Source: Thermoplasmatales archaeon SG8-52-3 (lineage in GTDB: Archaea > Thermoplasmatota > E2 > DHVEG-1). Taken from it: a DNA stretch of 64,000 bases. This document shows, piece by piece, positions 28,840 to 61,461 of the stretch; positions within the stretch are counted from its first letter, which is position 1, and every line of letters starts with the position of its first letter. The position numbers and the translations under genes are program-made. The stretch lies in assembly GCA_001595915.1 (NCBI GenBank), contig LSSG01000032.1:23142-87141 (forward strand). Direction: 5' to 3'. Below the pieces are notes generated by a model, which was not told where the DNA came from, did not search any database, and saw only the letters and a list, made by a program, of their open reading frames with translations.

Positions 28840-30630
28840 TTAAAAATAGAGATAAAAAATTTTTTTAAGAATTTGAAATCTATCAAGTAAGTTTAAGAAA
28901 GGATTGAAATTTGTTGCTCTATTTCTAAGTGTTTTTAGATAAACTGGTATTATCTCCCAATCTGTAGAATTATCAATATTTTTAATTCTTATAGAACCAA
29001 TAAATTCTTCATTTTTTTTATTAGGTGAAACAACACTTACTTCTACGGTTACTACCCCATCCTCAGGAGTTAGATTTATACCTGATGAAGGATTAATTGA
29101 CCATGTCCCCCAATTAGGTAAAAATTCAATTTCCCAATTAAGTAATGAATCAGAATCACCAATATTCTGGACCTGGAAATAACCATTTGCTATCTCCCCT
29201 GCCTTAATCTCAGTCCATTTTAACAAACCCTCGCAATCAAGATTTGCCCCTATTTCTGGATTACCTGGCGGATAATGCTGTATTGTGAAAACATCATTAG
29301 TAACAAGATTTGGAAATGGATTTTCGTATTGCCAAATTGTTTCTTTATTTGGTGTTACTTCAAAAAAAGTACCTGAAGGACCATTACAAATTAAGGTATT
29401 TCCATTGTATAATCTTTGAGCACCAGATATATGACTTGCAAAAAAGTCAGGGGGATTTTCAGCAGTATATATCCAAACTTGTTCTTCTGGACCATAAGGC
29501 AAACCAGGTTCCAGATAATAAAAACCATTGATATCTACTGGTGGCTCTATTTCATCTACAGAAGAATATTTTGGTTCAGGACGAGTATTACCATTACTAA
29601 AAACAAGAATATTTCCTTGACCTGGATAATTTTTTTCTATCCATCGTGCATCATGTTGATCAAATAGCTTTTGATCTGATTTATTACCTGCATAATATAC
29701 TCTTGGATTGCCCCATCGATATAAAAGATCGCCACCTTTTCCATATCTACCTCCGGTGTGTCCAGTTGATTCCTCAATAGTAGTACTATGGTCAATCACC
29801 CAAATCTCACTAAAACCTCTAACACTCAAAAGTATCTGGTCAAATTCTTTGTTATAATCTATAGAATTTATATGATTCCAGTCACCTGGAACTGGAATTT
29901 GCGGATAATTTATATTAATTAATTCAGGATGATTTGATACATTACCAAAGTTATCCTTTGATGGATCAAAATCCTGAATTAAATGATCCCACACATGCCA
30001 TTCCCATACAATATTACCACCAAAAGGTTCTGTTGGTTCAACTTCAATTATAAAGTCTGGCCAAAGATAATTAAACATTAAATAATTTGGATTTCTTCCT
30101 GCTTCAATAGCCTCATCCCGAGTTTTATACTCCCATGCAGTCATAAGAATATTTCCATTGGGCAATATTTCAATATCATGATGCAAGCAATAAACTTCAT
30201 TAGAATATTCAAATTCCCATAGCAGTGATCCATTCCAGCTGAATTTCTCAACACGTCCAGTAATTCCACCACCCCAAAATGTTGGACTTGTAAAAGGAAG
30301 ATCAGAGCGTAAAATATCTCCATTATCTAATAAATAAACAGACATTCCTTGAATATAATCACTTTTCCACATTTGAAGGATTTCTTCATTGTTATTAATT
30401 AAATATGACATTTTTGAATATTCTGGAGTATACAGAATATATCCGTCAAAACTATCATTATTTAAATTTTCATAAACCATTTTCGCAGAAATATTAGTTG
30501 ATGAATTTGAAAAACTTGATAAGAAGAAAATAAATATTATTCCGATAGTTAAAAATTTCAATATTTTATTCATTAATACAAATTTATCTCCCTTTTTTAT
30601 ATTTATCAATAGTAATATAATTATTAACAA
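28840..30630 (-). CDS. Secreted arylsulfotransferase (ASST)-like beta-propeller protein with a C-terminal beta-sandwich domain and shared tail motif
   Basis: 596 aa; the start is likely ATG 30573 (MNKILKFLTIGIIF...). HHDIEILPNGN, WEWHVWDHL and NHINSIDY are ASST-family hallmarks. It ends ...NFNPFLNLLDRFQILKKIFYLYF. Confidence 0.65.
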   Translation of the reverse strand: MLIIILLLINIKKGDKFVLMNKILKFLTIGIIFIFFLSSFSNSSTNISAKMVYENLNNDSFDGYILYTPEYSKMSYLINNNEEILQMWKSDYIQGMSVYLLDNGDILRSDLPFTSPTFWGGGITGRVEKFSWNGSLLWEFEYSNEVYCLHHDIEILPNGNILMTAWEYKTRDEAIEAGRNPNYLMFNYLWPDFIIEVEPTEPFGGNIVWEWHVWDHLIQDFDPSKDNFGNVSNHPELININYPQIPVPGDWNHINSIDYNKEFDQILLSVRGFSEIWVIDHSTTIEESTGHTGGRYGKGGDLLYRWGNPRVYYAGNKSDQKLFDQHDARWIEKNYPGQGNILVFSNGNTRPEPKYSSVDEIEPPVDINGFYYLEPGLPYGPEEQVWIYTAENPPDFFASHISGAQRLYNGNTLICNGPSGTFFEVTPNKETIWQYENPFPNLVTNDVFTIQHYPPGNPEIGANLDCEGLLKWTEIKAGEIANGYFQVQNIGDSDSLLNWEIEFLPNWGTWSINPSSGINLTPEDGVVTVEVSVVSPNKKNEEFIGSIRIKNIDNSTDWEIIPVYLKTLRNRATNFNPFLNLLDRFQILKKIFYLYF

Positions 30631-33086: not shown

Positions 33087-35171
33087 ATGAAAATCTTAAA
33101 AGTTAGAAATGGAATTGTAATAATTATAGTTATTTTGTTTATAGCATCTAGTGTATTTTCAATCGGTAGTGCAAATTTAATAAAAAATGATATAATTTAT
33201 AATAAAAATATTGATTTTCTCTCTTTTCAAGTAAATCCAATATTTACAAAAGAAACCTATATGGTTGAAATGAGGGATGGTATTCATCTTGCAACAGATG
33301 TATATCTACCAGATAATATCTCTTCGCCTCATGGTGCAATTCTAGTACGTACACCTTATAATAAGAACGGTTCTGGTATGGGGGGATGGGCTAACAAAGG
33401 TTGGCCATCTATTGTTCAGGATACAAGAGGACGTTTTCAATCAGAGGGAATTGATACAATATTTAGAGATGCTCATACCGATGGACCTGATACCTTAGAA
33501 TGGATTTCTAGTCAGAATTGGTCAAATGGAAAAGTAGCCACAATAGGGGGGTCAGCTACAGGTATAGTTCAGTATTTAATGGCAGGTGCTGGTCCTGATC
33601 AACTTAAATGCCAATATATAGGAGCGGCGACTCCAAATTTATATACTACAGTTTATCCTGGTGGACAGTTTAGAAAAAATATGTTAGAAGCATGGCTTCA
33701 GAACCAAGGAAGTACATATGTTTTACCAGAATTATGGGCTCATGAGAATTATTCTTTAGAGTATTGGACAAATGTATCTTTAGAGGATAACTGGCAGGAT
33801 GTAAATGTTCCAGCAGTGCATCTCGGTGGATGGTATGATTGTTTTTGTCAGGGACTTATTGATGGTTTTATGGGATATCAATATGATGGTGGAACTGGTG
33901 CTGCTGGGAAGTCAAAGCTAATTGTTGGTCCATGGACGCATGCATTTTTTGGAGAGAGATTGCAGGGTGAACTTTTATATCCAGAAAATGCAAAAGACAC
34001 CTTTTCAGCTGAATATTGGGATGAAATACTTGAACAATACATATTAGGTGAATCTAATGACTTTGAAAATAGACCAAATGTTGTATATTATGTAATGGGA
34101 GATGTGACAAATAGCGAAGCACTTGGAAACTTCTGGAGATATACCGATAATTGGCCTCCAGAATATATTGAAGATGAATGGTATTTTCATGAAAATAAGA
34201 TTTTATCATTGGATAGTCCAGGAAGCTACAGTCCTTTAACTTATAGTTATAACCCAACAAACCCTGTCCCAACAAAAGGTGGAACAAATCTATATCCTCT
34301 TGCTCCAACCTGGGCAGGTCCTTATGATCAAAGATCAGTTGAAAATAGAGCCGATGTATTATTATTTACTAGTGATGTTTTAACAGAACCTTATGAAGCT
34401 ACTGGTCCAATAAAAGCAAGACTATATGTTTCATCAGATTGTCCAGATACTGATTTTACAGTAAAGCTCACAGATGTTTATCCAGATGGAAGATCAATGC
34501 TTATAACAGACGGAATACTACGAATGAGAAACCGCAATGGATGTGATCATTGGGAGTTTATGGAACCTGGTCAAGTATATGAAGTGGAAGTTGATTTGTG
34601 GAGTACCTCCTATGTTTGGAACACTGGTCATAAGATAAGAGTAGCAGTATCATCATCAAATTATCCAAGATTCTTAGCAAATCCTAATACCAAAGATGCA
34701 ATGAACCAAAATACAGAATCAAATATTGCAGAAAACACATTGTATCTTGATTCCTCTCATCCTTCTTGTATAATTCTCCCTCGTTATAATGACAATTATG
34801 CCCCTATTAAACCAACAATTTCTGGACCTACGAGAGGTGTACCTGGAATAAATTATTCATTTATTTTCAAAACAATAGATCCAGAAGGTGAAGATGTATA
34901 CTTGTATATCGATTGGGGAGATGGCACAAATACAAATTGGTTAGGACCATATAGTTCAGGTGAAGAAGTAACTCTTGAACATACTTGGAGTTCAACAAAA
35001 ATCTATACAATTAAAGCAAAGGCAAAAGATATAAATCAAGATGAATGTGAATTTAGCAGTCATAATATAAATATCCCAAGAACGAGATTGTTTAATAAAT
35101 TGGTTCTCACAAGGTTATTTGAGCAATTTCCAAATATCTTTACTATAATTAGATATCTATTGGGATTATAA
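33087..35171 (+). CDS. Secreted CocE/NonD-family (S15 X-Pro dipeptidyl-peptidase-like) hydrolase with a C-terminal PKD-like domain and shared tail motif
   Basis: 694 aa with a signal/anchor. YMVEMRDGIHLATDVYLP...ILVRTPYNK is the CocE/NonD N-terminus. A PKD-like module contains YIDWGDGT. It ends ...LFEQFPNIFTIIRYLLGL. Confidence 0.75.
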   Translation: MKILKVRNGIVIIIVILFIASSVFSIGSANLIKNDIIYNKNIDFLSFQVNPIFTKETYMVEMRDGIHLATDVYLPDNISSPHGAILVRTPYNKNGSGMGGWANKGWPSIVQDTRGRFQSEGIDTIFRDAHTDGPDTLEWISSQNWSNGKVATIGGSATGIVQYLMAGAGPDQLKCQYIGAATPNLYTTVYPGGQFRKNMLEAWLQNQGSTYVLPELWAHENYSLEYWTNVSLEDNWQDVNVPAVHLGGWYDCFCQGLIDGFMGYQYDGGTGAAGKSKLIVGPWTHAFFGERLQGELLYPENAKDTFSAEYWDEILEQYILGESNDFENRPNVVYYVMGDVTNSEALGNFWRYTDNWPPEYIEDEWYFHENKILSLDSPGSYSPLTYSYNPTNPVPTKGGTNLYPLAPTWAGPYDQRSVENRADVLLFTSDVLTEPYEATGPIKARLYVSSDCPDTDFTVKLTDVYPDGRSMLITDGILRMRNRNGCDHWEFMEPGQVYEVEVDLWSTSYVWNTGHKIRVAVSSSNYPRFLANPNTKDAMNQNTESNIAENTLYLDSSHPSCIILPRYNDNYAPIKPTISGPTRGVPGINYSFIFKTIDPEGEDVYLYIDWGDGTNTNWLGPYSSGEEVTLEHTWSSTKIYTIKAKAKDINQDECEFSSHNINIPRTRLFNKLVLTRLFEQFPNIFTIIRYLLGL

Positions 35172-36104: not shown

Positions 36105-37082
36105 TTAAAATAATTCAGGTAACCATCGTTCTTTGTGAATCTCTCTTGCCATCCAAAAATTTGTTTTTCTTATAGCACCAGGAAATCTCTTGTCTATTTC
36201 ATCAATGATTTTTGTAAGTGAATTAAAATCCTTTACTAATAATTCAAAATTTAGATCACACCAGCCTATGGTCATATCCATTATATATCCTACATATGGA
36301 TTACCTTTCAAATAATCTTCTATCTTACTTCCTTTTGTGTGGTCTTTTAGATATATATCAATCATACAATTTTGAAGATTAAGCATCGATAAGTCAATAT
36401 CAACCCGAAATGCAAGAATTACATCTTTTTTTATCAAGCTTTTAATTCTATAATTAATAGTCTGTGAGGAACTATTCAGTTTTTCAGCAAGTTTTAATAG
36501 TGAAATCCTAGCATTATCTGCAATTTCATTTAGAAGCTGATAATCAAGCTTATCAATTTTTGCTGGTTCACCAACACAACTTATAGTATAAAACTCTCTA
36601 TCTGTTCTATCATAACCATCTTTTAGAAGATAAGATCTTTTAAGACAATTTACCTGGGTTAATATTGAAACTGAATATTTTTCAAAATAATTTCCATAAG
36701 TATCAAGAGTTTTATTCCAAAACTGATTAAATTTATAAACATCATCAACCCATAAAACTGCACTTAAATCAATAGGACCTTTTGCTGATTGTAATGTCCA
36801 AATATTCTTATAATTTTTAAAATAATTAATGATTTCTTCTTTGGTTTCGGGACTAACGTCTAAAAAATTAATATAGATTCTAAATGCATAATACCCGAGT
36901 TTCAATGAATTTATAGAAGTCCAAAAACATTTGATAACGCCAAGGTCCTGCATTCTTTTTATTCTATAGTTTACAACTTCTTTTGATAGACCTACCTTTC
37001 TTCCAATTTGATTATTTGATTGTCTACAATTAAGATCTAGCTGATATAAGATTTTTCTATCTTTTAGGTCAATTTTTAACAT
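36105..37082 (-). CDS. Tandem (double) Lrp/AsnC-family transcriptional regulator
   Basis: 325 aa with two HTH_AsnC modules (DRKILYQLDLNCRQSNNQIGRKVGLSKEVVNYRIKRMQDLGVI and LDYQLLNEIADNARISLLKLAEKLNSSSQTINYRIKSLIKKDVI), each followed by a RAM-like domain. Confidence 0.7.
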   Translation of the reverse strand: MLKIDLKDRKILYQLDLNCRQSNNQIGRKVGLSKEVVNYRIKRMQDLGVIKCFWTSINSLKLGYYAFRIYINFLDVSPETKEEIINYFKNYKNIWTLQSAKGPIDLSAVLWVDDVYKFNQFWNKTLDTYGNYFEKYSVSILTQVNCLKRSYLLKDGYDRTDREFYTISCVGEPAKIDKLDYQLLNEIADNARISLLKLAEKLNSSSQTINYRIKSLIKKDVILAFRVDIDLSMLNLQNCMIDIYLKDHTKGSKIEDYLKGNPYVGYIMDMTIGWCDLNFELLVKDFNSLTKIIDEIDKRFPGAIRKTNFWMAREIHKERWLPELF

Positions 37083-38098: not shown

Positions 38099-39364
38099 AT
38101 GAAAAAGAATATAACTAGAATTTTTTTATCAATATTTCTTTTTATTTTACTATTAGGTATTGGATTTTCAAGCTCTATTGGAGAAGCATTTTCATATAAA
38201 TTAAATAAAACTGTTAATGGAAATATTCTTTATGTGGGTGGAACAGGTCCTGGTAACTATTCAGATATTCAAGAGGCAATAGATAATGCAGAGAATGGTG
38301 ACACAATTTTTGTGTATATTGGAGATTACCCTGCTGATATTGTAGTTGACAAATCTATAATACTTATTGGAGAAAATAGAGAAAAAACAATTATTCAGGA
38401 CGCAAGTGATGGAATATTTGTTTTTGCAGATAAAGTGACAATTACAAATTTCACAATTACACATTGTGGAGGTTTTTGGGATAAGGCTGGGATATTAATC
38501 CGCTCAAATGATAATACAATTTGCTATAATAATATTGTAAACAATGGAGTTTTGAATGGAATATATCTAGAATTTGCTTCTTTTAATAATGTTTTTAGCA
38601 ACCTAATAGAAAATTGTCAATACAATGGTATTAAACTTGCTTATTCAAATTATAATAATATCAGTGGAAATATGATATCAACAAACAATGGAATGGGGAT
38701 TATCTTTCATGATTCATCTAACAATAATATTTTATTAAATACCATATCGCAAAGCTATTGGGGTGGTATTCAGATTTATGATAATTCTAATAACAACTTA
38801 TTATACCATAATAATTTAATAGAAAATGAAATTGATAACGGATATGATATATGTGGTAATGTCTGGGATAATGGAGCAGAGGGAAACTACTGGGATGATT
38901 ACTCAGGAGTTGATAATGACGGTGATGGAATAGGTGATACTCCCTACATAATTGATGGTAACACAACCAATGATAATTATCCCTTAATGAACATATATGA
39001 AATACCTTCAACTCCAACAATAAATGGTCCAATAAACGGTAAAACTGATGAAATATATGATTACACCTTTTCTACAACTGATCCAAATAGTGATGATATT
39101 TTTTACTATATTGAATGGGGAGATAATTCAAATTCGGGTTGGATTGGTCCTTATCAGTCAGGCTCAGAAATAGAACTTCAACATTCTTGGTCTGAAAAGG
39201 GTACAAAATTAATAACTGCAAGAGCAAAGGATACTAATGGGTTATTAGGATTTTCAAATACAATTGAGGTCTATATACCAAAAAACAATGTAAATTATAA
39301 CTTATTATGCAAATGGTTTTTTGAAAGGTTTTTATTGTTCGAAAAATTATTATTGTTATTTTAA
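38099..39364 (+). CDS. Secreted right-handed beta-helix (NosD/pectate-lyase-like) protein with a PKD-like domain and shared tail motif
   Basis: 421 aa with a signal. It has repeated NN(I/V)xxN turns (ICYNNIVNN, NNVFSNLIEN, NNISGNMIS, NNILLNTIS, NNLLYHNNLIEN), a PKD-like module containing YIEWGDNS, and ends ...WFFERFLLFEKLLLLF. Confidence 0.65.
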   Translation: MKKNITRIFLSIFLFILLLGIGFSSSIGEAFSYKLNKTVNGNILYVGGTGPGNYSDIQEAIDNAENGDTIFVYIGDYPADIVVDKSIILIGENREKTIIQDASDGIFVFADKVTITNFTITHCGGFWDKAGILIRSNDNTICYNNIVNNGVLNGIYLEFASFNNVFSNLIENCQYNGIKLAYSNYNNISGNMISTNNGMGIIFHDSSNNNILLNTISQSYWGGIQIYDNSNNNLLYHNNLIENEIDNGYDICGNVWDNGAEGNYWDDYSGVDNDGDGIGDTPYIIDGNTTNDNYPLMNIYEIPSTPTINGPINGKTDEIYDYTFSTTDPNSDDIFYYIEWGDNSNSGWIGPYQSGSEIELQHSWSEKGTKLITARAKDTNGLLGFSNTIEVYIPKNNVNYNLLCKWFFERFLLFEKLLLLF

Positions 39365-39375
39365 AAAATATAATA

Positions 39376-40689
39376 TTAGTTTTCAATTCTTCTCTTATTT
39401 GTATAAGTCATACCTTGAAATGAAATAGAGGTAATTGTTATAAGTGGAAAAAGTCCTTTATTCACATTTCTTCCTATTATCCTTAAAATATTTGAAGGAT
39501 TATAAAATCCATTATACATCTTTTGTATACCATTCATCAAATCATCAGCTGTTAGATTTTTTGGCTTGTAAACAACATTTTTACCGTCATATTTGCTCCA
39601 ATCCTTAATTACAATTCGATTTTGTCTTTCATATTCATCAAATAATGGTGTCCCTGGAAATGGAGTTAATATATGAAACTCTGCTTTATCAATATCAGAT
39701 TTACAAATGAAATCAAGGGTACTATCAAAAATATCAGTTTTATCAGCATCAAAACCAAACATGAATGAACCTTCAACGTTCATACCAAAGTTATGAATTT
39801 TATTTATAACAGATAAATATTGTTCAGAAACATTTGTTTTTTTTCCAATTGAATCAAGAGACTTTTGAGATATTGAATCAAAACCTATTGTCCAAGAAAT
39901 GCAACCAGCCTCTTGTGCAAATCTTAAAAGTTCTTCATCCTTAAATAAAATATTTGCATTTCCATAACAATAAAACTTTTTACCTAAATCTTTCATATTT
40001 TTAAACAATTCTTTTGTATAATTAGTATTAATTGTTAAAGATGCATCACTAAAAAGTATATACTTTTGAGGAATTTTTTGAATTTCATTTATCACTTGAT
40101 CAATAGGTCTAACCCTAAACACTCTACGTCCGGGACTATGAGAAATCGCACAGAAGTTACAACCATGTGGACATCCTCTGGTAGCTTCTATTGCTACAGC
40201 AGAATTGATTCCTTTTTGCTTTATTCTTCCATTCCCATAATTTGGTAAAAGAGAAAGATCGACTGGTTTTTCTTGTCTATATATTTGTTTTAACTTATCT
40301 TCCTCAATATCTTTAAGTAACTGTGGCCAAAGCTCTTCAGCCTCCCCGATAACTATACTGTCAGCATGTTGTTTTGCTTCTTCTGGAAGAGCAGAAGGGT
40401 GCCAACCACCTAGAACAACCTTTTTTCCTCTTTTTCTAAAATTTTCAGATATCTCATATGCTTTTAGAGCTTGATTCGTCATTACAGATATCCCAATTAA
40501 ATCGTAGTTCTTTTCGTAATCAATATTTTCTAATCTTTCATCTATAATCTCAATCGAATTTTTTTCAGGAGTCATATTTGTAAGAGCCTTAAAAGCAGGA
40601 ATTATTGGATTTGAAAAAATACTAAAAAATTTAACAATAAATGAAGGTAAGGTCTTTACAGGATTTGGGTATATTAATAATATTTTCAT
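39376..40689 (-). CDS. B12-binding-domain radical SAM protein
   Basis: 437 aa with an N-terminal cobalamin-binding-like Rossmann region followed by EATRGCPHGCNFCAIS (the CxxxCxxC radical-SAM cluster motif). Confidence 0.8.
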   Translation of the reverse strand: MKILLIYPNPVKTLPSFIVKFFSIFSNPIIPAFKALTNMTPEKNSIEIIDERLENIDYEKNYDLIGISVMTNQALKAYEISENFRKRGKKVVLGGWHPSALPEEAKQHADSIVIGEAEELWPQLLKDIEEDKLKQIYRQEKPVDLSLLPNYGNGRIKQKGINSAVAIEATRGCPHGCNFCAISHSPGRRVFRVRPIDQVINEIQKIPQKYILFSDASLTINTNYTKELFKNMKDLGKKFYCYGNANILFKDEELLRFAQEAGCISWTIGFDSISQKSLDSIGKKTNVSEQYLSVINKIHNFGMNVEGSFMFGFDADKTDIFDSTLDFICKSDIDKAEFHILTPFPGTPLFDEYERQNRIVIKDWSKYDGKNVVYKPKNLTADDLMNGIQKMYNGFYNPSNILRIIGRNVNKGLFPLITITSISFQGMTYTNKRRIEN

Positions 40690-42333: not shown

Positions 42334-42732
42334 TTATTTTCTAATTCTATAGCATATCATAATTATAGTAATTAGGCTAGCAATTGCTAAAATTATTAAT
42401 ACCGGGTGTTTTTCAATATCATTACTCCCATCTCTATTTAATTGATTCCCTAAGATAACCAGAGAATCCTTATATTCCTCCTCGGTATCTTTGAAATCTT
42501 CTTCCAAATCAATGGAAGATGTAATTTTGTCCTCACCGCCTTCATCTTTCTCAAATTTATTTTTTAAATTTTTATTTTGTGTAACAATTAGTGGTGCTTC
42601 AATTCCTTCTTTATTATCAATTATGTCAGTTTTTGATAGACTATCTTCTCTTGCAGTAGCAATAATGACAGATGAATAAAAAATGATTAATATTAAAAAT
42701 AAAACTATGCTCTTTCTATTAAAATTTTTCAT
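42334..42732 (-). CDS. Acidic type-I membrane protein (N-terminal signal, C-terminal TM)
   Basis: 132 aa with a signal, a Glu/Asp/Lys-rich ectodomain, and a C-terminal helix VLIILAIASLITIIMICY followed by RIRK. Confidence 0.4.
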   Translation of the reverse strand: MKNFNRKSIVLFLILIIFYSSVIIATAREDSLSKTDIIDNKEGIEAPLIVTQNKNLKNKFEKDEGGEDKITSSIDLEEDFKDTEEEYKDSLVILGNQLNRDGSNDIEKHPVLIILAIASLITIIMICYRIRK

Positions 42733-42832: not shown

Positions 42833-43840
42833 ATGATTACTTGGAAATCATTTTTGAAAAATGATTCAATAAATTGGTTATTGGAAAATAACAACCCTTC
42901 TGTTAGATATTTAACTTTAATGGATATTCTTAATAAATCTAATAAAAATTCTGAGGTTATTGAATCAAAAAAGAAAATAATGGAATCAGGATTGATTCAA
43001 AAAATTCTCTCAAAACAAAATTCTAAAGGTTATTGGTTCGAACCTGAAAATTTCTATATTAAAAGAAAATATAAGGGGACAGTTTGGAACTTAATAATAT
43101 TGGCTGAAATAGGTGCCGATGGAAATGATAAAAGAATAAAAAAAGCTTGTGAGTTTATTTTAAATAATTCTCAAAATAAAGAAAGTGGAGGATTTGCGTA
43201 TAGTGCTTTAAAAAGTGGAGGTGGAGCAGATTCAAAAGTGTTACCATGTTTATCAGGAAATATGGTATGGTCCTTAATCTGTTTTGGTTATATTGATGAT
43301 TTTAGAGTTCAAAAGGGGATTGAATGGATAACAAATTATCAAAGGTTTGATGATGGTATACAAGAATTACCTGAGAATTGGCCTTATAAAAAACATATAA
43401 ATTGTTTTGGAAAGCATTCTTGTCATATGGGAGTAGTTAAATCATTGAAAGCACTAGCAGAAATTCCTGAAGAAAAAAGATCAAAAATTGTCAAAATAAC
43501 AATTAAAAATGGTGTCGAATATTTACTAAAACATCATATTTACAAAAAAAGTCATGACTTAAATAAAGTCTCAAAACCTAGTTGGTTACAACTTAGTTTT
43601 CCACATATGTATCAAACAGACATATTAGAAATACTTGATATTTTAACTAGACTTTGGAATAAAGACAGACGGATGCAAGATGCAATTGATATTTTAATAT
43701 CAAAACAAAATGAAAATGGAACCTGGAATCTTGAAAGAACCTTTAATGGTCGTTTTATAACAAATATTGAAACTAAAGGAAAACCGAGTAAATGGATAAC
43801 TTTGAACGCTCTAAGGGTTTTGAAAAGGTATTATATCTAA
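42833..43840 (+). CDS. Alpha/alpha-toroid protein (prenyltransferase / squalene-oxidase-repeat-like)
   Basis: 335 aa with periodic motifs Q..KGYW, ESGGFAY, PCLSGNMVW, YQTDILE and QNENGTWN spaced as in terpenoid-cyclase/prenyltransferase repeats. No signal peptide. Confidence 0.45.
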   Translation: MITWKSFLKNDSINWLLENNNPSVRYLTLMDILNKSNKNSEVIESKKKIMESGLIQKILSKQNSKGYWFEPENFYIKRKYKGTVWNLIILAEIGADGNDKRIKKACEFILNNSQNKESGGFAYSALKSGGGADSKVLPCLSGNMVWSLICFGYIDDFRVQKGIEWITNYQRFDDGIQELPENWPYKKHINCFGKHSCHMGVVKSLKALAEIPEEKRSKIVKITIKNGVEYLLKHHIYKKSHDLNKVSKPSWLQLSFPHMYQTDILEILDILTRLWNKDRRMQDAIDILISKQNENGTWNLERTFNGRFITNIETKGKPSKWITLNALRVLKRYYI

Positions 43841-43922: not shown

Positions 43923-44801
43923 GTGAAACATATGAAGAAAATCTTACTGGGTAGTATTATAGCATTAATGGTATTAATTCCAGTTGTAAGTGCTATAGAT
44001 GTCTCAATTGAAAATAAAACTGAAAAACCAATATCTATAATGCAGGATTTCACACATACTGTTTTTGTAGAATATGGATCTTTGACAACCTGTCCACCTT
44101 GTGTAACAGCATCTGCTCAATTATATAGTATTTATAATTCTGGTGATCTCGATTTTCATTATGCTACATTGGTTTGGGATGTTGCTAATGGAAATGTTCG
44201 TAGTAGACTCACAGAATTAGAAGTTGTTGGTGTACCAGATGTATTTTTTGATGGTGGATATAAGAGAATAATTGGTGGTCAAGGATCTGAAGCACCATAT
44301 AGAGGCGCAATTACACTAGCAGGAGAAAGAGAAGTCCCAGATATTGACATAGCATTAGATGTAACCTGGCTTGGTGGCGGAAAACTTAAAATCGAAGCGA
44401 CTGTCACAAACAATGAAGTTGAAGAGTTTAATGGTAATATTAGAACATATGTAGTTGAAAAAGAATCCAGGTGGAATGATTATTCTGGTAAACCATATCA
44501 TTATGCAGCTTTAGATATTCCAATAGATAAGAGTTTAGCAGTTGTTAACACTGAAGCCAAACCTCTTGGTGAATCTTATACATTTTCTAAAACCTGGAGA
44601 GGTTCAATTTATGGTTTTGGGGATATCACACAAGATAATACAATGGTAATAGTTGCAGTTTATGATAAGGAATCAGATTATGTTGTTCAAACAGCTGCAG
44701 CAAATCCAACCGGTAAAATTGGAAATTATAGACCAATAAATATTTTGTTTTATAAGATATTTGAACGATTTCAAGTACTAGAACAAATCCTAAACCTATA
44801 A
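43923..44801 (+). CDS. Secreted thioredoxin-like (CPPC) protein with shared tail motif
   Basis: The start is likely ATG 43932 (MKKILLGSIIALMVLIPVVSA). VEYGSLTTCPPCVTA carries a CxxC redox motif in a thioredoxin-like context. It ends ...ILFYKIFERFQVLEQILNL. Confidence 0.5.
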   Translation: MKHMKKILLGSIIALMVLIPVVSAIDVSIENKTEKPISIMQDFTHTVFVEYGSLTTCPPCVTASAQLYSIYNSGDLDFHYATLVWDVANGNVRSRLTELEVVGVPDVFFDGGYKRIIGGQGSEAPYRGAITLAGEREVPDIDIALDVTWLGGGKLKIEATVTNNEVEEFNGNIRTYVVEKESRWNDYSGKPYHYAALDIPIDKSLAVVNTEAKPLGESYTFSKTWRGSIYGFGDITQDNTMVIVAVYDKESDYVVQTAAANPTGKIGNYRPINILFYKIFERFQVLEQILNL

Positions 44802-44883: not shown

Positions 44884-45585
44884 ATGATAATAGTCAATAA
44901 CGTTACAAAATCTTATGGTAAAATAATTGCACTAAAAAATGTAAATTTGAAATTTGAGGATTCACATGTAATTGCAATAATGGGCGAAAATGGGGCAGGA
45001 AAAACAACACTATTAAAACTATGTACAGGAATTTTACCGTTTGATAGCGGGGAAATCACTGTTGATGGTTATAATATCATTAATGATTCAATAAAAGCTA
45101 AGGAACAAATTGGATATCTCCCAGAAATGCCTTACATGTATGAAAGACTTACAGGTAGAGAGTTTCTTTTTTATATTGCTTCTCTTAGAAAAATTAAGGA
45201 TTCAGAAGAAAAAATAGATGAAATCACTAAAATGATTGGAATACATGATTTTCTTGATTATGAAATAGGCAGCTATTCAAAGGGTATGAAACAAAAGATA
45301 TCAGTAACATCTGCAATAATGCATAACCCAAAAAATCTATTATTAGATGAACCTGTCTACGGTCTTGATCCTTTAACATCAAGAGCAATTCAAAATTTTA
45401 TTAGAAATAAAAAAGGTAGTACGATAATTGCGACTCACTCATCGCAGTTAGTAGAACAAATTGCTGATCATGTTTATATAATAATGAGAGGTAAAGTTAT
45501 ATTATTTGATAAAGTTACAAGCATCTTAAAAAAACATGGTAGTGTCGAAGAAGCATATTTTCATATAAAGGATGAAAATGTTTGA
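44884..45585 (+). CDS. ABC transporter ATP-binding protein
   Basis: 233 aa with Walker A GENGAGKTT, signature YSKGMKQKI and Walker B LLDEPVYGLD. Confidence 0.88.
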   Translation: MIIVNNVTKSYGKIIALKNVNLKFEDSHVIAIMGENGAGKTTLLKLCTGILPFDSGEITVDGYNIINDSIKAKEQIGYLPEMPYMYERLTGREFLFYIASLRKIKDSEEKIDEITKMIGIHDFLDYEIGSYSKGMKQKISVTSAIMHNPKNLLLDEPVYGLDPLTSRAIQNFIRNKKGSTIIATHSSQLVEQIADHVYIIMRGKVILFDKVTSILKKHGSVEEAYFHIKDENV

Positions 45586-46960
45586 AACAACTAAAGTAAT
45601 ACTTACAGAAAATTCAAGAAGTCTAAAAAATAAAATGCGAGAAGCACCAATTCTTTATTTGTTATTTTCGGCAATGATTATTTTTTCGATTTTCATTTTT
45701 GCATACGCTACTTTTTTCTTCATAAACATAGATATAAATCTAAATATCAGTCTGGAAGATGTTTTTTTTACAGTTTTTTTTATGTTTTTATTAAAAACAG
45801 TAGCTGATTTTTATAACAATTTTATAAAGGCATCCCAGCTTTCATATTCACTTTCTACAAATGTTAAACAAACAAAGACTATTACTGAAGTTTTTATTGC
45901 AATTCTTCTAATTCAAATTACTATTTGGTTTTCATTTTCTATTTTATTTTTAATAGCTCTTGCAAGTTTTGGTGTAAATGTTATCTACGTATTTGAATAC
46001 ACAATTTTTACAATAGGAGTAATTGTAGCTGTCTGTTTAGGATGTGCAATCTCTATAAATTTTTTCTCACCTAAAAAATATAGACTTCTACCAATGTTAA
46101 TTTTATTAGGATTTTATTTTCAAATAAGAGAACCGCTTTATGTAATATTTACTCTCCCCTTAACCATAATTCATGTAACCTGGAGTATTAAAAACAGTAT
46201 GGAATCTCATCTTTATAGCACCAGAAAAGAAAGATTAAAAGACAAAACTCAGATAAAAATCCGTAACACTATAAAGACAATTTTTCATCGAGAAACAACA
46301 GTCCTATGGCGTGATAAACTATTATATAGTTTTGTTTTTACTTCTGTTTCAACTGGTATATTTAGTGGTTATCTTTTTTTATATGGTGATGAAATCCTAA
46401 TACCAGAAGCACTTAGAAATCAAATTGGTGGTCTTTTGCCATCAATGTTTCTGTTTCTTGGTATTTATGTTGTGATTATGTATACTGGCGTATTTCCTTC
46501 TTTGAATCTTTTTTTAAATGAAGAAAAAACAATGTGGATATTAAGACATATTCCTGTAAGAAACGATAAAATAATATTTGGTAAGGTATCCTCACTTTCT
46601 TTGTGTTTTCTTACTGCTATTCCATTTATACCATATATCACAATATTTACAGGAATTGAAAAAATCGGTTTCCTTATCTTTTTTCTGATTTTTTCCTATA
46701 TTGCAGGAATAATAATCTCTGTACCTTTGGGTGTTAAATATGTTGGAAAAAAGTCAGATATTATGTTGCTATATAGTGTATCCATGATACTTTTTGTAAT
46801 TCTTAGTTTTGCATCAGTTATTGTAAATATGATAGAACGATTATTTCCATATCCAATTATTTTATATATTTTGATTATTCTTTGTGAATTATTATTGCTT
46901 TATGCTTCTATAAAAATATCCTCACAAATATTATCATTGAAATACAAATCAGCTAGTTAG
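45572..46960 (+). CDS. Polytopic membrane protein, putative ABC exporter permease partner
   Basis: 462 aa with at least 10 hydrophobic helices. It overlaps the ATPase gene by 14 nt. Confidence 0.5.
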   Translation: MKMFETTKVILTENSRSLKNKMREAPILYLLFSAMIIFSIFIFAYATFFFINIDINLNISLEDVFFTVFFMFLLKTVADFYNNFIKASQLSYSLSTNVKQTKTITEVFIAILLIQITIWFSFSILFLIALASFGVNVIYVFEYTIFTIGVIVAVCLGCAISINFFSPKKYRLLPMLILLGFYFQIREPLYVIFTLPLTIIHVTWSIKNSMESHLYSTRKERLKDKTQIKIRNTIKTIFHRETTVLWRDKLLYSFVFTSVSTGIFSGYLFLYGDEILIPEALRNQIGGLLPSMFLFLGIYVVIMYTGVFPSLNLFLNEEKTMWILRHIPVRNDKIIFGKVSSLSLCFLTAIPFIPYITIFTGIEKIGFLIFFLIFSYIAGIIISVPLGVKYVGKKSDIMLLYSVSMILFVILSFASVIVNMIERLFPYPIILYILIILCELLLLYASIKISSQILSLKYKSAS

Positions 46961-52292: not shown

Positions 52293-53384
52293 ATGGAAAA
52301 AAATAAAAAATATACTATAAAAGGCGCAGGCGTTTTGCTGATTGCAGCAGCCCTCATATTAACATCCGTGGCTGTAACAGCAGATACAGTAAAAGAAAAA
52401 ATGAACCCAGCATTTTTAAGATCAACTGGTCCAAGTATTTCAATTGAAAACAGCCCAGCAACAACAGGTGCTGTAATTTTTGAACAATTACCGTACGAAC
52501 CAGAGGAATCCTGGATTTTTATGACTAGTGCTGCTAGTGCAGGATACCGTGTATGGGATGAATACTGGGAACTAAACGAACAGATTTGTGATATTCACTG
52601 GTGGGGTCTTAGCCTAGTTTATCCATGGGCAGCATGTGATCCTAGTGGAATGGTCTTTGAAATCATATTCTGGGATGCATTACTTGGAAATCCAGTATGT
52701 ACATACCAGGTAACACCAACAGGAGTATCAACTGGAAAATTCTACAGTGGATTTGAAATGTTCTATTGGGAAGCTATACTTGATCCATGTTGTGATTTAA
52801 TTCCAAATGGTTGGGTATCAATTCAAAGTGTACAAAGTCCAAATAATTGTTGGTTATTATGGGCAGGATCAGACGAAGGTGATCTATACTGTTATCAGGA
52901 AGGATCAACCACTCCAGATCAAGTTGACGATGCAGCATTCCAATTAACAGCAGAAGGAGAACCAGCATATCCAAAAATAATTTGTGACCCAGTAGGAATG
53001 AACTTCGGAAAAGCAGGTCCTGGAGCAACTGTTACTGGACAAATATATGTTTGTAACGGTGGAGATCCTGGATCATACTTAGACTGGTATGTTGACACAG
53101 CAGCTGTTCCAACATGGGGAACCTGGACATTTACACCTGCCGGTGGCACTGGTGTAGCAGAGGGTGACTGTGTTGTTGTTGATGTAACTTGTGTTGTAAC
53201 TGATACAACTGGTACATACAATGGTGAAATAACTGTTTACAATGCAAAAGATTCAACTGACTACTGTAAAATTGATACTTCAGTTGAAGTACCAAGAGCC
53301 AGATCACATAACGCATTGATGTGGAACTTATTCCAGCAATTCCCAGCGCTATACCAAATTGTAAAAATAATATTTGGGGCTTAA
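52293..53384 (+). CDS. Secreted/surface hypothetical protein with shared tail motif, compositionally atypical
   Basis: 363 aa with the signal GAGVLLIAAALILTSVAVTADT and several Cys pairs. The C-terminal beta-sandwich-like part is rich in T/G/V. It ends ...ALMWNLFQQFPALYQIVKIIFGA. The gene is visibly GC-richer than its flanks: three long antisense ORFs appear only here. Confidence 0.55.
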   Translation: MEKNKKYTIKGAGVLLIAAALILTSVAVTADTVKEKMNPAFLRSTGPSISIENSPATTGAVIFEQLPYEPEESWIFMTSAASAGYRVWDEYWELNEQICDIHWWGLSLVYPWAACDPSGMVFEIIFWDALLGNPVCTYQVTPTGVSTGKFYSGFEMFYWEAILDPCCDLIPNGWVSIQSVQSPNNCWLLWAGSDEGDLYCYQEGSTTPDQVDDAAFQLTAEGEPAYPKIICDPVGMNFGKAGPGATVTGQIYVCNGGDPGSYLDWYVDTAAVPTWGTWTFTPAGGTGVAEGDCVVVDVTCVVTDTTGTYNGEITVYNAKDSTDYCKIDTSVEVPRARSHNALMWNLFQQFPALYQIVKIIFGA

Positions 53385-57365: not shown

Positions 57366-58037
57366 TTGGATTTCTTTATTTTTATATACTTTATTTCAAA
57401 TACTAAATCTGAGTTATTAATGAAAAATAAAAAAGAAAAAATCAGAAAATATCTAATATTATTTTTTGCAAATTATGTTATTAGATATTACCAATATATT
57501 CATCATTTAGTAATTCCTTATTTTAAAAAAGAAAATAATCCTAAGATTTTTTGTATCGGTTATGTAAAAACCGGAACTACTTCTTTGTACAAGGCATTGT
57601 CAATACTTGGTTATAGATCAGTCAAAATGCTGAGAGGTTGTGTAAAACCAAAGGAAGGATGGATTAAATATATTAAAAGTTGTAAATATGATGCTTATAC
57701 TGATTATCCAATGTTTGTAGATAATTTTTTTAAAGAGATCGATAAAGCATATCCAAATAGTAAATTTATTCTAACAATAAGAGACATTAATTCTTGGTTA
57801 AAAAGTTATACAAATTATTATTTTGTGTCTTCAGATTTATCAAAAAATGAAGGAAAACAAAAACTAAATGAGCATAATAAAAAAGTAATCGCATATTTTA
57901 AAGATAAACCATCTAAATTATTAGTAATGAATATTATAGATGGAGATGGATGGGAAAAACTATGTAAATTTTTAAATAAACCCGTTCCAAATAAACCATT
58001 TCCTCATAAAAATATTGGAAAATACAAAAAATTTTGA
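57366..58037 (+). CDS. Sulfotransferase-family protein
   Basis: The start is likely ATG 57420. It has the PAPS 5'-phosphosulfate-binding-loop-like segment GYVKTGTTSL and RDINSWLKS. Confidence 0.55.
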   Translation: MDFFIFIYFISNTKSELLMKNKKEKIRKYLILFFANYVIRYYQYIHHLVIPYFKKENNPKIFCIGYVKTGTTSLYKALSILGYRSVKMLRGCVKPKEGWIKYIKSCKYDAYTDYPMFVDNFFKEIDKAYPNSKFILTIRDINSWLKSYTNYYFVSSDLSKNEGKQKLNEHNKKVIAYFKDKPSKLLVMNIIDGDGWEKLCKFLNKPVPNKPFPHKNIGKYKKF

Positions 58038-58039
58038 AA

Positions 58040-58750
58040 TTATTTTATTGTATTTTTAGTAAATATTTTTCTATAAATAGGTCCACCTAATGAATAAATA
58101 ACAATAGCTATTATTAGAAAAATTGGAGCAAAACCATAAAACTCTTTTCCTAAAATTATAGTCAAAATAATAAGAGCTGCAGCTGTAGCATTAACTTTTA
58201 AAGAGGGTTTAGGGAACTTAATATTTGTAATCATTGCTATTGAGATTAAAAAAATTGCTAATAATATTAAGAAAAAATTATTTTCAAAATATGAAAGTAT
58301 TATTAATATGATAGTGCTAGCTGATGCAGGAAGACCAAGAAAGAATTTTTTATTTTTCATTTTATGAAAAGAAGAAAGTCTAACTGCTCCAAGTAATAGA
58401 AATAAAACAAGAGCTATCAATAGATAAATATGATTATAAATGCTAGATAATAAAAAATCATGGTAAACAAAGTAAATAAAAATCGCAGGAGCAATAATTA
58501 GTGATGTCATATCTGAAATTGATTCTAAATATTCTCCAATCTCACTAATTCTTGTTTTTCTTGCAATAACACCATCTAAACCGTCTGCAAGAAGAGCAAG
58601 TAGTATAAGCGAAAAGGATACTCTAATCTTCAATTCCTCATTTGGAATTAAATCTGAAAATAAGATAAGAATAGCAAGAAAACCAAAAATTGCATTTGTA
58701 AGTGAAATTAAATCGGCAAGTGAAATTAGTTTAATCATTGATTTTTGCAA
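58040..58750 (-). CDS. pssA: CDP-alcohol phosphatidyltransferase, archaetidylserine-synthase-like
   Basis: 236 aa with about 6 TM helices and the CDP-alcohol motif DGLDGVIARKTRISEIGEYLESISDMTS (DGx2ARx8Gx3Dx3D). Confidence 0.8.
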   Translation of the reverse strand: MQKSMIKLISLADLISLTNAIFGFLAILILFSDLIPNEELKIRVSFSLILLALLADGLDGVIARKTRISEIGEYLESISDMTSLIIAPAIFIYFVYHDFLLSSIYNHIYLLIALVLFLLLGAVRLSSFHKMKNKKFFLGLPASASTIILIILSYFENNFFLILLAIFLISIAMITNIKFPKPSLKVNATAAALIILTIILGKEFYGFAPIFLIIAIVIYSLGGPIYRKIFTKNTIK

Positions 58751-59381
58751 TTGTCTTCTCCCCTGCCTTTACCATTTCTCCTCTTTTAACTAAGATTTTT
58801 TTTATTTTTTTTATTGGTAAATACACATCTACCCTAGAACCAAATTTTATTATTCCTATCTTTTCACCCTTTTTCACCTTGTTTCCTTTTTCAATATATG
58901 GAACAATACGACGAGCTAATGTCCCTGCAATCTGTATTATTTTTATTAAGCCAATTTTTGTTTCAGCTATAATTATTACTCTTTCATTTTTTTCTGATTC
59001 TTTTTTAAATGCAGGAAGATGAAATCCAGATTTATGAACAATATTTTTAATATTACCATCCATGGGCATTCGATTAACATGAACATTATATACATTCATA
59101 AATGTAGAAATTCTGGTACATTCTCCAACATCGCTATCTTTTAAGTTGCAGGTTTCTCTAATTCTTCCATCAGCACATGCAACAATATCTGGTCCGATAA
59201 ACCTGTCAGGATCTCTGAAAAAGATTATCATAAGAATTGTTATTAGAAAAGTAATCAATGATAAAAAAAGAAATATCGCACTAGTAACCTTATCTGTGAT
59301 AAAAATAAATAAGATTAAAAAAAAGATAAATAGAATAAAAGGACTAAGAATCCAAAACTTTGAACCTTTAGCAATATTCAT
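58731..59381 (-). CDS. psd: Phosphatidyl/archaetidylserine decarboxylase-related proenzyme (short type)
   Basis: 216 aa with an N-terminal membrane anchor and the self-cleavage-site region IIKFGSRVDVYLP (GS motif). It overlaps pssA. Confidence 0.75.
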   Translation of the reverse strand: MNIAKGSKFWILSPFILFIFFLILFIFITDKVTSAIFLFLSLITFLITILMIIFFRDPDRFIGPDIVACADGRIRETCNLKDSDVGECTRISTFMNVYNVHVNRMPMDGNIKNIVHKSGFHLPAFKKESEKNERVIIIAETKIGLIKIIQIAGTLARRIVPYIEKGNKVKKGEKIGIIKFGSRVDVYLPIKKIKKILVKRGEMVKAGEKTIAKIND

Positions 59382-59382
59382 A

Positions 59383-60312
59383 TTATATTTTTCTCCAAAC
59401 TTTTTCTAATAATCTTTCAAATGGTCCTTTTCTTTTGTAAAGGTCTGTAATACTTATTATTTCATCAAAAATCTCAGGAAGGATTTTAATGACTATGAAC
59501 AATAAGATAATCAATGCAATAAGGCTTCCTCCTTTTCCAATTATATTATGTGCTGTACTAAAAAATTCGGTACCATATTCACCTGTCAGATAAATTACAA
59601 GCGCATTTCTTATTAAATTCAAAAAGTATATTGGTAAAACTGTTACTAAAAGTCCATATGATTTCCTGGTTATACTTACATTTGAAAGTGGTAGTATCAT
59701 ACCAACAAAAAGTACTATTGACTGAACTGCTGTGCATGCAAATATTAGTGATATAACAGCTTCTTTGTAGCTAATGTATACTCCCTCTATAATCACTCCA
59801 CCTGTGAAAAAATTAAGTAGTCCTCCACTTTGAGAAGCAACAATTAATCTTAATTCCATTGCTAACGGTGTTAATTCAATACCAAAATAAATTATTCCAG
59901 CAATTGCTGCAACTCCGGCTGCCCAATTCAAACAATTTAATTCTTTAAATCCTTTTATTGATAACCATTCATGATAAGCTAAATAAAAAAGTATAAAAAC
60001 CCCAATAATTGCAATAAAAGCATTAACAAAGTCTCCGTCTTCACCAAAATAAAGTGTATTAGGTTGAGTAGACCAGTAAAATGCAAAAAGAAACCATCCT
60101 GATATTTTTATCGTACTGCTCAATTTTTTCTTTTTTATTAAAAATCCTATTAATAAAATTACTAGACTACTAAATAGAGGAATTGATAAAAAAAACTCAG
60201 TATCTTCTGATAAAGGATAATTAAATAAAAAAATTCCAAAAATTACAAGAATTAATGGAATTATAAAAAATAATGATGATATAATCTTATCTAAAGTATT
60301 AAATTTCTCCAT
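59383..60312 (-). CDS. Archaeosortase/exosortase-family polytopic membrane protein
   Basis: 309 aa with about 7-8 TM helices. The candidate catalytic Cys is in LIFACTAVQSIVLF (Cys193). Arg is in VLPIYFLNLIRNALVI (Arg235, 42 residues later) and His in STAHNIIGKGG, which is the Cys/Arg/His layout of archaeosortases. Its stop is 1 nt from the psd start. Confidence 0.6.
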   Translation of the reverse strand: MEKFNTLDKIISSLFFIIPLILVIFGIFLFNYPLSEDTEFFLSIPLFSSLVILLIGFLIKKKKLSSTIKISGWFLFAFYWSTQPNTLYFGEDGDFVNAFIAIIGVFILFYLAYHEWLSIKGFKELNCLNWAAGVAAIAGIIYFGIELTPLAMELRLIVASQSGGLLNFFTGGVIIEGVYISYKEAVISLIFACTAVQSIVLFVGMILPLSNVSITRKSYGLLVTVLPIYFLNLIRNALVIYLTGEYGTEFFSTAHNIIGKGGSLIALIILLFIVIKILPEIFDEIISITDLYKRKGPFERLLEKVWRKI

Positions 60313-60372: not shown

Positions 60373-61461
60373 TTAGATAAAACCAAGTAACTCTGCTATC
60401 TTAGGCCACCCATAGCTCTCCATCATTGTTCCATCCCACATTATACATATCAACCCAACAAGAGCAATAAGTGTTAAAGGAACCCAATAAGTATATACTA
60501 TCTGATCAATTTTTAAACGTGCGACTGCAACTCGAATGAGGGTCACTGAAAATATTATTATTATAAGTATCTTAATCAGGAAGAATGTGAAATCTATTAT
60601 GTATGCAGGGTAGCTTTCTAAACCAAATAACGGTGATAGATTATATGGGAAAAACAATGCAACAATAATTGATGCCATAACTACTGTTTTTACAGCATCC
60701 GTAAGATAAAACATTGCCAGATTTCTACCTGAATATTCCACAAGTAAACCACCACCTATCTCGGTTTCAGCTTCTGGAGCATCAAAAGGAATTTTTGAAA
60801 GTTCAGCAGGAGTCACGACAATCAATACAATTAATAATAGTATCAATCCAATTAATCCAAGAGGACCAACTGCATTCCAAATTGGATTTGCTGTAATTGC
60901 TGTTAAGGTAAATGCATTTTCAACACCTAATCCACCTGCGGCAAAGCTACCTAATTTCCAAGCAACTGTTATTATTATTATTGCAAGAGGAAATTCATAA
61001 GCAATCATTGTTGCCATCTCTCTTTGTGCACCTACTGTTGCATATGGTGAACCAGAGGCAAAACCACCAATAACAAGAGCAAGTGATGGAATCATTAGAA
61101 GATATAATATTAAAATTAGATCACCAAATATGATTTCTCCCTCAACAGATGCCAATGGTTGAAAACCACCTATAGGAAGATAAAGAAGAATTGATATTGT
61201 ACCTACAAGACCAATGAGTGGCGCAAGGTTAAACACCCAGGGAACTGCATTTTCTGGAATTATATTTTCCTTTGTAAATAACTTTCCAACGTCTCTGAAT
61301 GGTTGACGTAATGGAGGTCCAATTCTACCTTGCATGTGTGCAGATATTTTTCTGTCTATACCTTTATATATTAGACCAAAGAAAATCCCAAAAAAAGCAA
61401 GAGCAACTGTACTAAGTATAATAATCATTACCGTTCTAATTATTTGTTCTAACTCAAGCAC
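60373..61461 (-). CDS. NuoH/HycD/MbhM-like membrane subunit (complex-I subunit-1 family)
   Basis: 362 aa. HMQGRIGPPLRQPFRDVGKLFTKE is the hallmark loop of NuoH-type subunits, and there are about 8 TM helices. Confidence 0.75.
   Translation of the reverse strand: MLELEQIIRTVMIIILSTVALAFFGIFFGLIYKGIDRKISAHMQGRIGPPLRQPFRDVGKLFTKENIIPENAVPWVFNLAPLIGLVGTISILLYLPIGGFQPLASVEGEIIFGDLILILYLLMIPSLALVIGGFASGSPYATVGAQREMATMIAYEFPLAIIIITVAWKLGSFAAGGLGVENAFTLTAITANPIWNAVGPLGLIGLILLLIVLIVVTPAELSKIPFDAPEAETEIGGGLLVEYSGRNLAMFYLTDAVKTVVMASIIVALFFPYNLSPLFGLESYPAYIIDFTFFLIKILIIIIFSVTLIRVAVARLKIDQIVYTYWVPLTLIALVGLICIMWDGTMMESYGWPKIAELLGFI

Follow-up and report, generated by a model that had tools for sequence, protein, structure and literature searches.

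The artA-psd-pssA unit

The 64-kb stretch of contig LSSG01000032.1 of Thermoplasmatales archaeon SG8-52-3 that was analyzed here (the window) is AT-rich archaeal DNA, with approximately 29% GC, and carries on its minus strand three closely packed genes, for an archaeosortase (artA), an archaetidyl/phosphatidylserine decarboxylase homolog (psd) and a serine-synthase-type CDP-alcohol phosphatidyltransferase (pssA) (Table 1). The three genes probably constitute a standard archaeosortase A system. A previous reading of this DNA, made from the letters alone, had described them as one unit in which the archaeosortase-like stop codon is one nucleotide (nt) away from the psd start and psd overlaps pssA, and the open reading frames (ORFs) agree with this description. 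Direct reading of the first junction gives AAA ATA TAA T ATG, where the stop codon of artA and the start codon of psd are separated by a single nucleotide. The extent of the second junction depends on the start codon of pssA. It is an overlap of 8 nt (ATGATTAA) when the ATG at 58738 is used, which gives a protein of 232 amino acids (aa) and is the start picked by gene callers in public assemblies, and of 20 nt when the upstream TTG at 58750 is used, which gives a protein of 236 aa.

The proposal that the 309-aa protein is an archaeosortase is confirmed. It matches the NCBI curated model of archaeosortase A, TIGR04125, with 105.3 bits (cutoff 75), and the exosortase/archaeosortase signature TIGR04178 with 59.8 bits (cutoff 23). 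The other Art/Xrt subfamily models are far below their cutoffs, the next being ArtE with 39.5 bits (cutoff 95) and ArtH with 27.8 bits (cutoff 200), and public records name the homologs 'archaeosortase A', from metagenome-assembled genomes (MAGs) of Thermoplasmata/Thermoplasmatales. Classification by hidden Markov models (HMMs) therefore places the protein within ArtA and not in a subfamily of its own, and what stands of the divergent subfamily proposed by the sequence-only reading is a lineage-specific clade of lower score.

The conserved Cys and Arg are present on alignment, given that Cys193 and Arg235, together with His255, are invariant in 24 relatives. The motif around the cysteine, ACTAVQS, had been regarded as atypical, on the ground that archaeosortase A has a Gly after the Cys-Thr/Ser. 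This does not hold for ArtA: in the homologs from Methanosarcinales and Methanophagales, with TIGR04125 scores of 203-218 bits, this site reads ILACTAIQSMVLF, and LNILRN and AH stand at the other aligned positions. ACTAVQS is therefore a normal ArtA motif. The motifs common to the 309-aa protein and to ArtA of anaerobic methanotrophic archaea (ANME) and Methanosarcinales are ACTA[VI]QS, LNxxRN and AH. The Arg that follows the His in ANME ArtA (AHGVIARIG) aligns with Lys260 of the window protein (AHNIIGKGGS), which is possibly one remaining difference. Lys260 may correspond to R253, which is the second catalytic Arg in HvArtA; tblastn of ArtA against plasmids, aimed at a haloarchaeal ArtA for this comparison, gave no match. 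Seven to eight hydrophobic segments indicate that the window ArtA is a polytopic integral membrane protein, and the AlphaFold2 (AF2) model (pLDDT 88.8, pTM 0.83) is an all-helical membrane bundle in which a small beta-sheet precedes Cys193. Searches of the PDB by sequence and by fold gave no homolog of this protein.

Both partner proteins fall in the expected enzyme families and, from their sequences, look functional. Psd matches PF02666 with 135.9 bits and NF003685 with 194.5 bits (cutoff 183), and its self-cleavage site FGSR lies at residues 179-182, with G[ST][RT] kept in 71 of the 72 orthologs. PssA matches PF01066 with 42.8 bits (cutoff 22), and 67 of 71 orthologs share its motif DGVIAR..G..xE...D (DGxxAR..GxxxExxxD). 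The best NCBIfam matches of PssA are all serine synthases and all below cutoff (NF038087, 101.8 bits against 240; NF038086, 96.6 against 200; TIGR00473, 88.2 against 107).

Table 1. Features of the artA locus and of the tail-bearing genes in the window
Feature	Position	Strand	Basis
artA, archaeosortase A, 309 aa	59383-60312	-	ORF list and TIGR04125/TIGR04178 matches
psd (pssD), archaetidyl/phosphatidylserine decarboxylase, 216 aa	58731-59381	-	PF02666, NF003685
pssA, serine-synthase-type CDP-alcohol phosphatidyltransferase	58040-58738 (ATG) or 58040-58750 (TTG)	-	PF01066
artA-psd junction, TAA + one T + ATG	59379-59385	-	Direct sequence reading
psd-pssA overlap, ATGATTAA	58731-58738	-	Direct sequence reading
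NuoH/MbhM-like subunit gene of Mrp/Mbh cluster	60373-61461	-	PF00146 and neighboring Mrp/Mbh genes
Tail of arylsulfotransferase-like protein (gene 28840-30630), ..LRNRATNFNPFLNLLDRFQILKKIFYLYF	28843-28938	-	Window-seeded HMM only
Tail of S15 peptidase/PKD protein (gene 33087-35171), ..IPRTRLFNKLVLTRLFEQFPNIFTIIRYLLGL	35070-35168	+	Canonical-tail HMM, E 2e-12, 45 bits
Tail of NosD/beta-helix protein (gene 38099-39364), ..IPKNNVNYNLLCKWFFERFLLFEKLLLLF	39272-39361	+	Canonical-tail HMM, E 5e-6
Tail of 292-aa secreted protein (gene 43923-44801), ..INILFYKIFERFQVLEQILNL	44712-44798	+	Window-seeded HMM only
Tail of 363-aa secreted protein (gene 52293-53384), ..VPRARSHNALMWNLFQQFPALYQIVKIIFGA	53286-53381	+	Tail pattern; ortholog with the same tail in L001 and L161

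Conservation in Thermoplasmatota and published counterparts

The species representatives of GTDB were scanned for ArtA loci, which gave 74 loci in Thermoplasmatota with 46-84% identity and six in Methanosarcinales/Methanophagales with 29-38% identity. SM1-50 and CP070798.1, a complete genome, are among the Thermoplasmatota. Essentially all of the 74 loci, which are of the MBG-D type (for Marine Benthic Group D) and represent approximately 70 genomes, have the order mbhM-artA-psd-pssA with abutting or overlapping genes. After pssA there is usually an NTPase gene and then trm1. The NuoH/MbhM-like gene of the window is on the same strand as artA and ends 60 nt upstream of it; it is conserved context, most of the 74 loci having the same mbhM-artA order, and lies outside the sorting system.

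The unit is made up of the three enzyme families that are also found in Haloferax volcanii (ArtA, HvPssA and HvPssD) and in the Methanosarcina cluster, and the window ArtA has the same Cys, Arg (and His) motifs. In Methanosarcina, artA is near pssA, with pssD in between (Pohlschroder group, PMC7157517), so that artA is likewise clustered with homologs of the phosphatidylserine (PS) decarboxylase and the PS synthase. In Haloferax, HvPssA as well as HvPssD is needed for ArtA-dependent cleavage and lipidation, and it was proposed that archaetidylethanolamine resolves the Cys thioester; the three haloarchaeal genes are unclustered and function together nonetheless (PMC7157517). Given these published cases, the trio is a known arrangement. 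What differs here is the host, a member of the Thermoplasmatota of the MBG-D type, and the order artA-psd-pssA with junctions of the translational-coupling type. The operon is thus known in kind, and what is new is its description in this lineage; no paper linking MBG-D with an archaeosortase was found in the literature.

Next to the unit, pssA and the NTPase gene are set apart by an oppositely oriented Sulfotransfer_4-like gene (57366-58037, +), which is also present in L161 and L162, contigs that match the window exactly. In the 74 related loci, where the NTPase gene usually comes closely after pssA, no homolog of it was found within 6 kb of artA (phmmer, E<=1e-5), and it may be a recent insertion. 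Contig L161 extends past the artA-side end of the window, and its positions 1-1859 carry an intein-containing PolD large subunit (Intein_splicing and LAGLIDADG) and the PolD small subunit.

The C-terminal tail of the secreted proteins

The sequence-only reading had also pointed out five secreted proteins of the window that share a tail F-[EQ]-[RQ]-F, and had proposed that this tail is the signal recognized by the archaeosortase. The five tails are there: five proteins with signal peptides and otherwise unrelated domains, two of which (292 and 363 aa) have no recognized domain, end with [FL]-[EQD]-[RQ]-F plus 9-13 residues. They would be candidate substrates of ArtA under that hypothesis only.

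A search of an index of 5.8 billion proteins with a profile of the tail alignment gave only 12 candidates and four short fragments, and revealed the canonical form of the tail. This form is ...ESDWGTLEVTMPKNKxFNFNFxLLSWLFERFPNAFPILRHLLGL (or ..GY), that is, MPKNK..LLSWLFERFPNAFPILRHLLGL followed by the end of the protein, and it mostly comes directly after a PKD-like domain. A profile built from the window tails and the four database fragments was then run on 1.84 billion representative proteins, where 1515 protein clusters matched at E<=1e-3, of which 228 reached E<=1e-10. Nearly all of the best 150 of the 1515 matches have the tail at the extreme C-terminus, and in 89 of these 150 the protein ends exactly 13 residues past FERF. 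Among 30 tail proteins looked up, the three with a named taxon all come from MAGs or a single-cell genome of Thermoplasmatales (UCD13133.1 from CP070798.1, EMR74854.1 from SCGC AB-540-F20, and UCF13722.1 from CP070724.1).

Compared with this 'LFERFPNAFPILRHLLGL' module of secreted PKD-domain proteins of MBG-D Thermoplasmatales (EMR74854.1, UCD13133.1, UCF13722.1), the window tails are diverged members. They occupy the same extreme C-terminal site, with P-[KR]-x-[KR] just past the last beta-strand, and have the same F-E/Q-R/Q-F core, usually ending 9-13 residues later, but in the window much of the FPNAFPILR core is lost. The canonical-tail HMM was built without the window sequences, and three of the five window tails are recognized only by the window-seeded HMM. 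Neither the canonical nor the window tails have a model in Pfam or NCBIfam (for the window tails, no NCBIfam match at E<=10), and no sequence or fold homolog of the tail was found in the PDB. In the literature no match for the tail sequence and no description of it were found; the paper on Thermoprofundales mentions PKD/C25 exoenzymes and does not mention the tail. The single-sequence AF2 model of the tail region is weak overall (pLDDT 50.7), and only the two-helix tail, predicted as helix-kink-helix, reaches 71-82.

Other endings recur in the secreted proteins of the tail-bearing organisms (L085, L096, L097, L099, L100, L126 and others). One of them is '..NYWxRPRxLPKxIFG....INIDWxPAxEPYDI', another is '..GFVLLFFIKVNPGG', and there are also a C25-like '..GDPSLxIGGY' and an Ig-like '..AYDxAGN...IxVxKFF', the last of which is found on the window ORF 27129-28817 as well. 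The secreted NosD/beta-helix protein of the window (38099-39364) has the FERF tail, while the NosD/beta-helix protein L123_10203_11081, also secreted, ends with a plain transmembrane (TM) helix and a basic tail. From this pair, it may be that proteins are retained at the surface either by the tail or by a TM anchor, interchangeably.

Among the tail genes of the window there is a regulator with a double Lrp/AsnC-type helix-turn-helix (36105-37082, -), and small Lrp/AsnC-like regulators (L152_1530_2114 and similar) are present in 5 of 80 tail loci. Also interleaved with the tail genes are those for a B12-binding radical SAM protein (39376-40689, -), a prenyltransferase/squalene-cyclase-like alpha-toroid protein (42833-43840, +), and, at 44884-46960 (+), an ABC ATPase together with a large membrane protein.

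Sorting signals and the function of the unit

The reading that we consider probable is that this Thermoplasmatota archaeon of the MBG-D/'Thermoprofundales' type has a standard archaeosortase A system, encoded by a tightly packed artA-psd-pssA unit. The analysis establishes the identities of the genes, their conserved residues and their synteny; for the chemistry, by analogy with the Haloferax work, the genes imply the same as in Haloferax volcanii and Methanosarcina, with a thioester resolved by archaetidylethanolamine. PssA would convert CDP-archaeol and serine to archaetidylserine, and Psd, a pyruvoyl enzyme that would cleave itself between FG and SR, would decarboxylate this product to archaetidylethanolamine. 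ArtA would cut a tripartite C-terminal signal, composed of a PGF-type motif, a TM helix and a basic cluster, through a thioester on Cys193, which the amine of the ethanolamine would then resolve, leaving the surface protein lipid-anchored. We infer from this analogy that the products of psd and pssA are the source of archaetidylethanolamine for ArtA. The earlier idea that the partner enzymes supply the lipid is upheld to the extent that their motifs are intact, that they are fixed beside artA and that they fit the ArtA/PssA/PssD model (PMC7157517), but not in the link that it drew to the tail.

Most likely, ArtA acts on a small number of PGF-type proteins ('PGFELL...RRR', Heimdall-CTERM-like) whose genes lie outside the window. 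In related genomes, L067_7059_8234, encoded 4 kb from an artA-psd-pssA operon, has a tripartite PGF-type end, ...IPGFELLTILFAFVVILFIVRRRHR, that scores 27.9 bits on Heimdall-CTERM (NF045529; cutoff 24). L149_1621_2151, the convergent neighbor of a tail gene, ends with the PGF-type ...TPGFELLVFIISIIAIILFIKKR, which scores 18.8 bits on the same model and is under its cutoff. The signals of these two relatives are tripartite, as are those described by PGF-CTERM (TIGR04126), Heimdall-CTERM and Loki-CTERM (NF033507), and signals of this type are the kind of substrate expected for ArtA. A homolog search with the L067 protein, which is a GLUG protein, gave matches dominated by bacterial GLUG-repeat proteins.

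Several observations weigh against this assignment. No ORF in the 64 kb of the window has a PGF-like motif, TM helix and basic tail, as had been noticed from the letters alone. This absence is uninformative by itself, given that genomes with ArtA may hold a single substrate (the range is 1 to 52 PGF-CTERM substrates per genome; PMC6098224). In approximately 1.8 Mb of DNA of this lineage there are, however, two PGF-type genes versus approximately 35 unselected tail genes (8 in the ArtA loci and 27 additional ones in the tail loci), and the tail and the Thermoplasmatota ArtA clade are found in the same lineage and sometimes on the same contig. The proteins of this clade score 105-135 bits on TIGR04125 versus 203-218 for ANME/Methanosarcinales, and have approximately 45 additional N-terminal residues, which form an extra helix, and a conserved C-terminal helix, DLYKRxGPxE. 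On these sequence grounds, they form a distinct, lower-scoring clade inside ArtA. Compared with the Haloferax volcanii and Methanosarcina enzymes, the window ArtA stands out in the same way, with the extra N-terminal helix, the conserved C-terminal helix on the cytoplasmic side and a score of only 105 bits. Because of the low score of the clade, its N-terminal helix and its C-terminal extension, an altered specificity is possible. Finally, Psd is below the cutoff of the sorting-specific model NF038088 (anchor_synt_D; 173.2 bits versus 240), and PssA is likewise below that of NF038086, both models being 'protein sorting system' sub-models of NCBI.

The scores of these two proteins, for which the matching models are the generic ones of PS decarboxylases and serine synthases, also fit an explanation in which psd and pssA are mainly a housekeeping route to archaetidylserine and archaetidylethanolamine lipids. 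The genes would then lie beside artA and the Mbh/Mrp genes for historical or regulatory reasons, and ArtA would draw on the general lipid pool or be of minor importance. The conserved housekeeping surroundings across the lineage (mbh, NTPase, trm1 and folate genes) fit such an explanation, as does the fact that the haloarchaeal genes cooperate while unclustered (PMC7157517). Nonetheless, we consider it unlikely. The overlapping or 1-nt spacing and the fixed order in approximately 70 genomes, maintained over 46-84% ArtA identity, argue for co-expression and a functional link, and the same cluster arose in Methanosarcina (PMC7157517). Furthermore, a housekeeping role is compatible with archaetidylethanolamine being the co-substrate of ArtA. 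The standard system that we favor would extend the published arrangement of artA with pssD and pssA to Thermoplasmatota of the MBG-D/Thermoprofundales type, as a fixed, tightly coupled operon in approximately 70 genomes, and this fixed operon is useful independent support for the use of archaetidylethanolamine by ArtA.

The divergence of the ArtA clade (105-135 versus 203-218 bits) and the abundance of the tail relative to PGF-type proteins (approximately 35 versus two) are points in favor of a different explanation. In this case the specificity of the Thermoplasmatota ArtA would have shifted or broadened to the FERFP-type tail, which the enzyme would cleave. It would attach archaetidylethanolamine supplied by Psd and PssA, which are co-transcribed with it, and dozens of secreted hydrolases would be lipid-anchored in this way. 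The tail is without a curated Pfam or NCBIfam model, and there is no other candidate sorting enzyme beside the tail genes: when the neighbors of 80 tail genes were clustered, no membrane enzyme recurred that might serve as their dedicated partner in sorting. Regarding co-occurrence, for which the sequence-only reading had proposed a test across genomes, a tail gene is found within 10 kb of artA on 8 of the 74 ArtA contigs, and the complete genome CP070798.1 encodes a tail protein (P0129) in addition to the ArtA trio (L034). This association exists only at the level of the lineage and could reflect common descent, and PGF-type signals coexist both with the ArtA operon (L067) and with a tail gene (L149).

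The properties of the tail itself make this explanation very improbable. All described signals of sortases, exosortases, archaeosortases and rhombosortases have a TM helix and a basic cluster (PMC6098224), and the tail has neither. The maximum hydropathy over 19 residues is 0.61 +/- 0.26 in the 150 canonical tails (maximum 1.5) and 0.72-1.26 in the window tails, versus 2.55 for the PGF-type signal of L067. Conserved Glu, Arg and Arg/His residues are present in the tail; no basic residue follows its hydrophobic part, and the basic PKNK/PRTR precede it. The five window tails gave no match at E<=10 with the PGF-CTERM, Heimdall-CTERM and Loki-CTERM models, and the motif, TM helix, basic cluster and TIGR04126-type match of PGF-CTERM signals are all absent from the tail. 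Moreover, it is conserved residue by residue across approximately 30 aa, while the TM part of cleaved signals is conserved only in composition. This conservation of specific residues resembles that of a folded or binding module and not that of a cleaved membrane signal. At the same time, the FPNAFP core is variable within one genome, with Pro in two of the five window tails.

The proposal that the tail is the cognate signal of the archaeosortase is thus unsupported, and we very much doubt that ArtA is paired with the tail through the recognition of a non-tripartite helix-kink-helix signal (LFERFPNAFPILRHLLGL and the diverged forms of the window). If it were true, archaeosortases would have a signal of a new class, by which dozens of extracellular hydrolases per genome would be lipid-anchored, and this in a group that ranks among the most abundant archaea of sediments. 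In the reading favored here, the tail is separate from the ArtA system, a diverged copy of a highly conserved helix-kink-helix module without a TM helix (LFERFPNAFPILRHLLGL) with which many secreted hydrolases of MBG-D end, and it is more likely a retained module for interaction or surface association than a cleaved ArtA signal. The tail is the more interesting item of this locus, uncurated, very conserved and present in more than 1500 clusters of secreted proteins, and it merits a separate study with or without ArtA. Its carriers include the peptidase/PKD proteins that are regarded as drivers of the degradation of protein in marine sediments, and it bears on how MBG-D cells hold their exoenzymes at the surface.

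Two further proteins were considered in the context of PGF-type signals. The window ORF 42334-42732 (-) was evaluated as a degenerate PGF-CTERM protein and rejected, given that it has no motif and no match to a sorting model. It encodes an acidic protein of 132 aa that has a signal anchor at the N-terminus and, at the C-terminus, a TM helix followed by YRIRK, and its product is the only small secreted protein of the window with a C-terminal TM anchor. The other is P0289 (L164-L166), a GLUG protein whose tripartite C-terminus is of the PGFE type and the one additional match of this type in the search with the L067 protein; it was left unused since its contig carries arrestin-like genes and may well not be from Thermoplasmatota. 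This 83-kb contig is possibly from an Asgard archaeon, consistent with the naming of Heimdall-CTERM.

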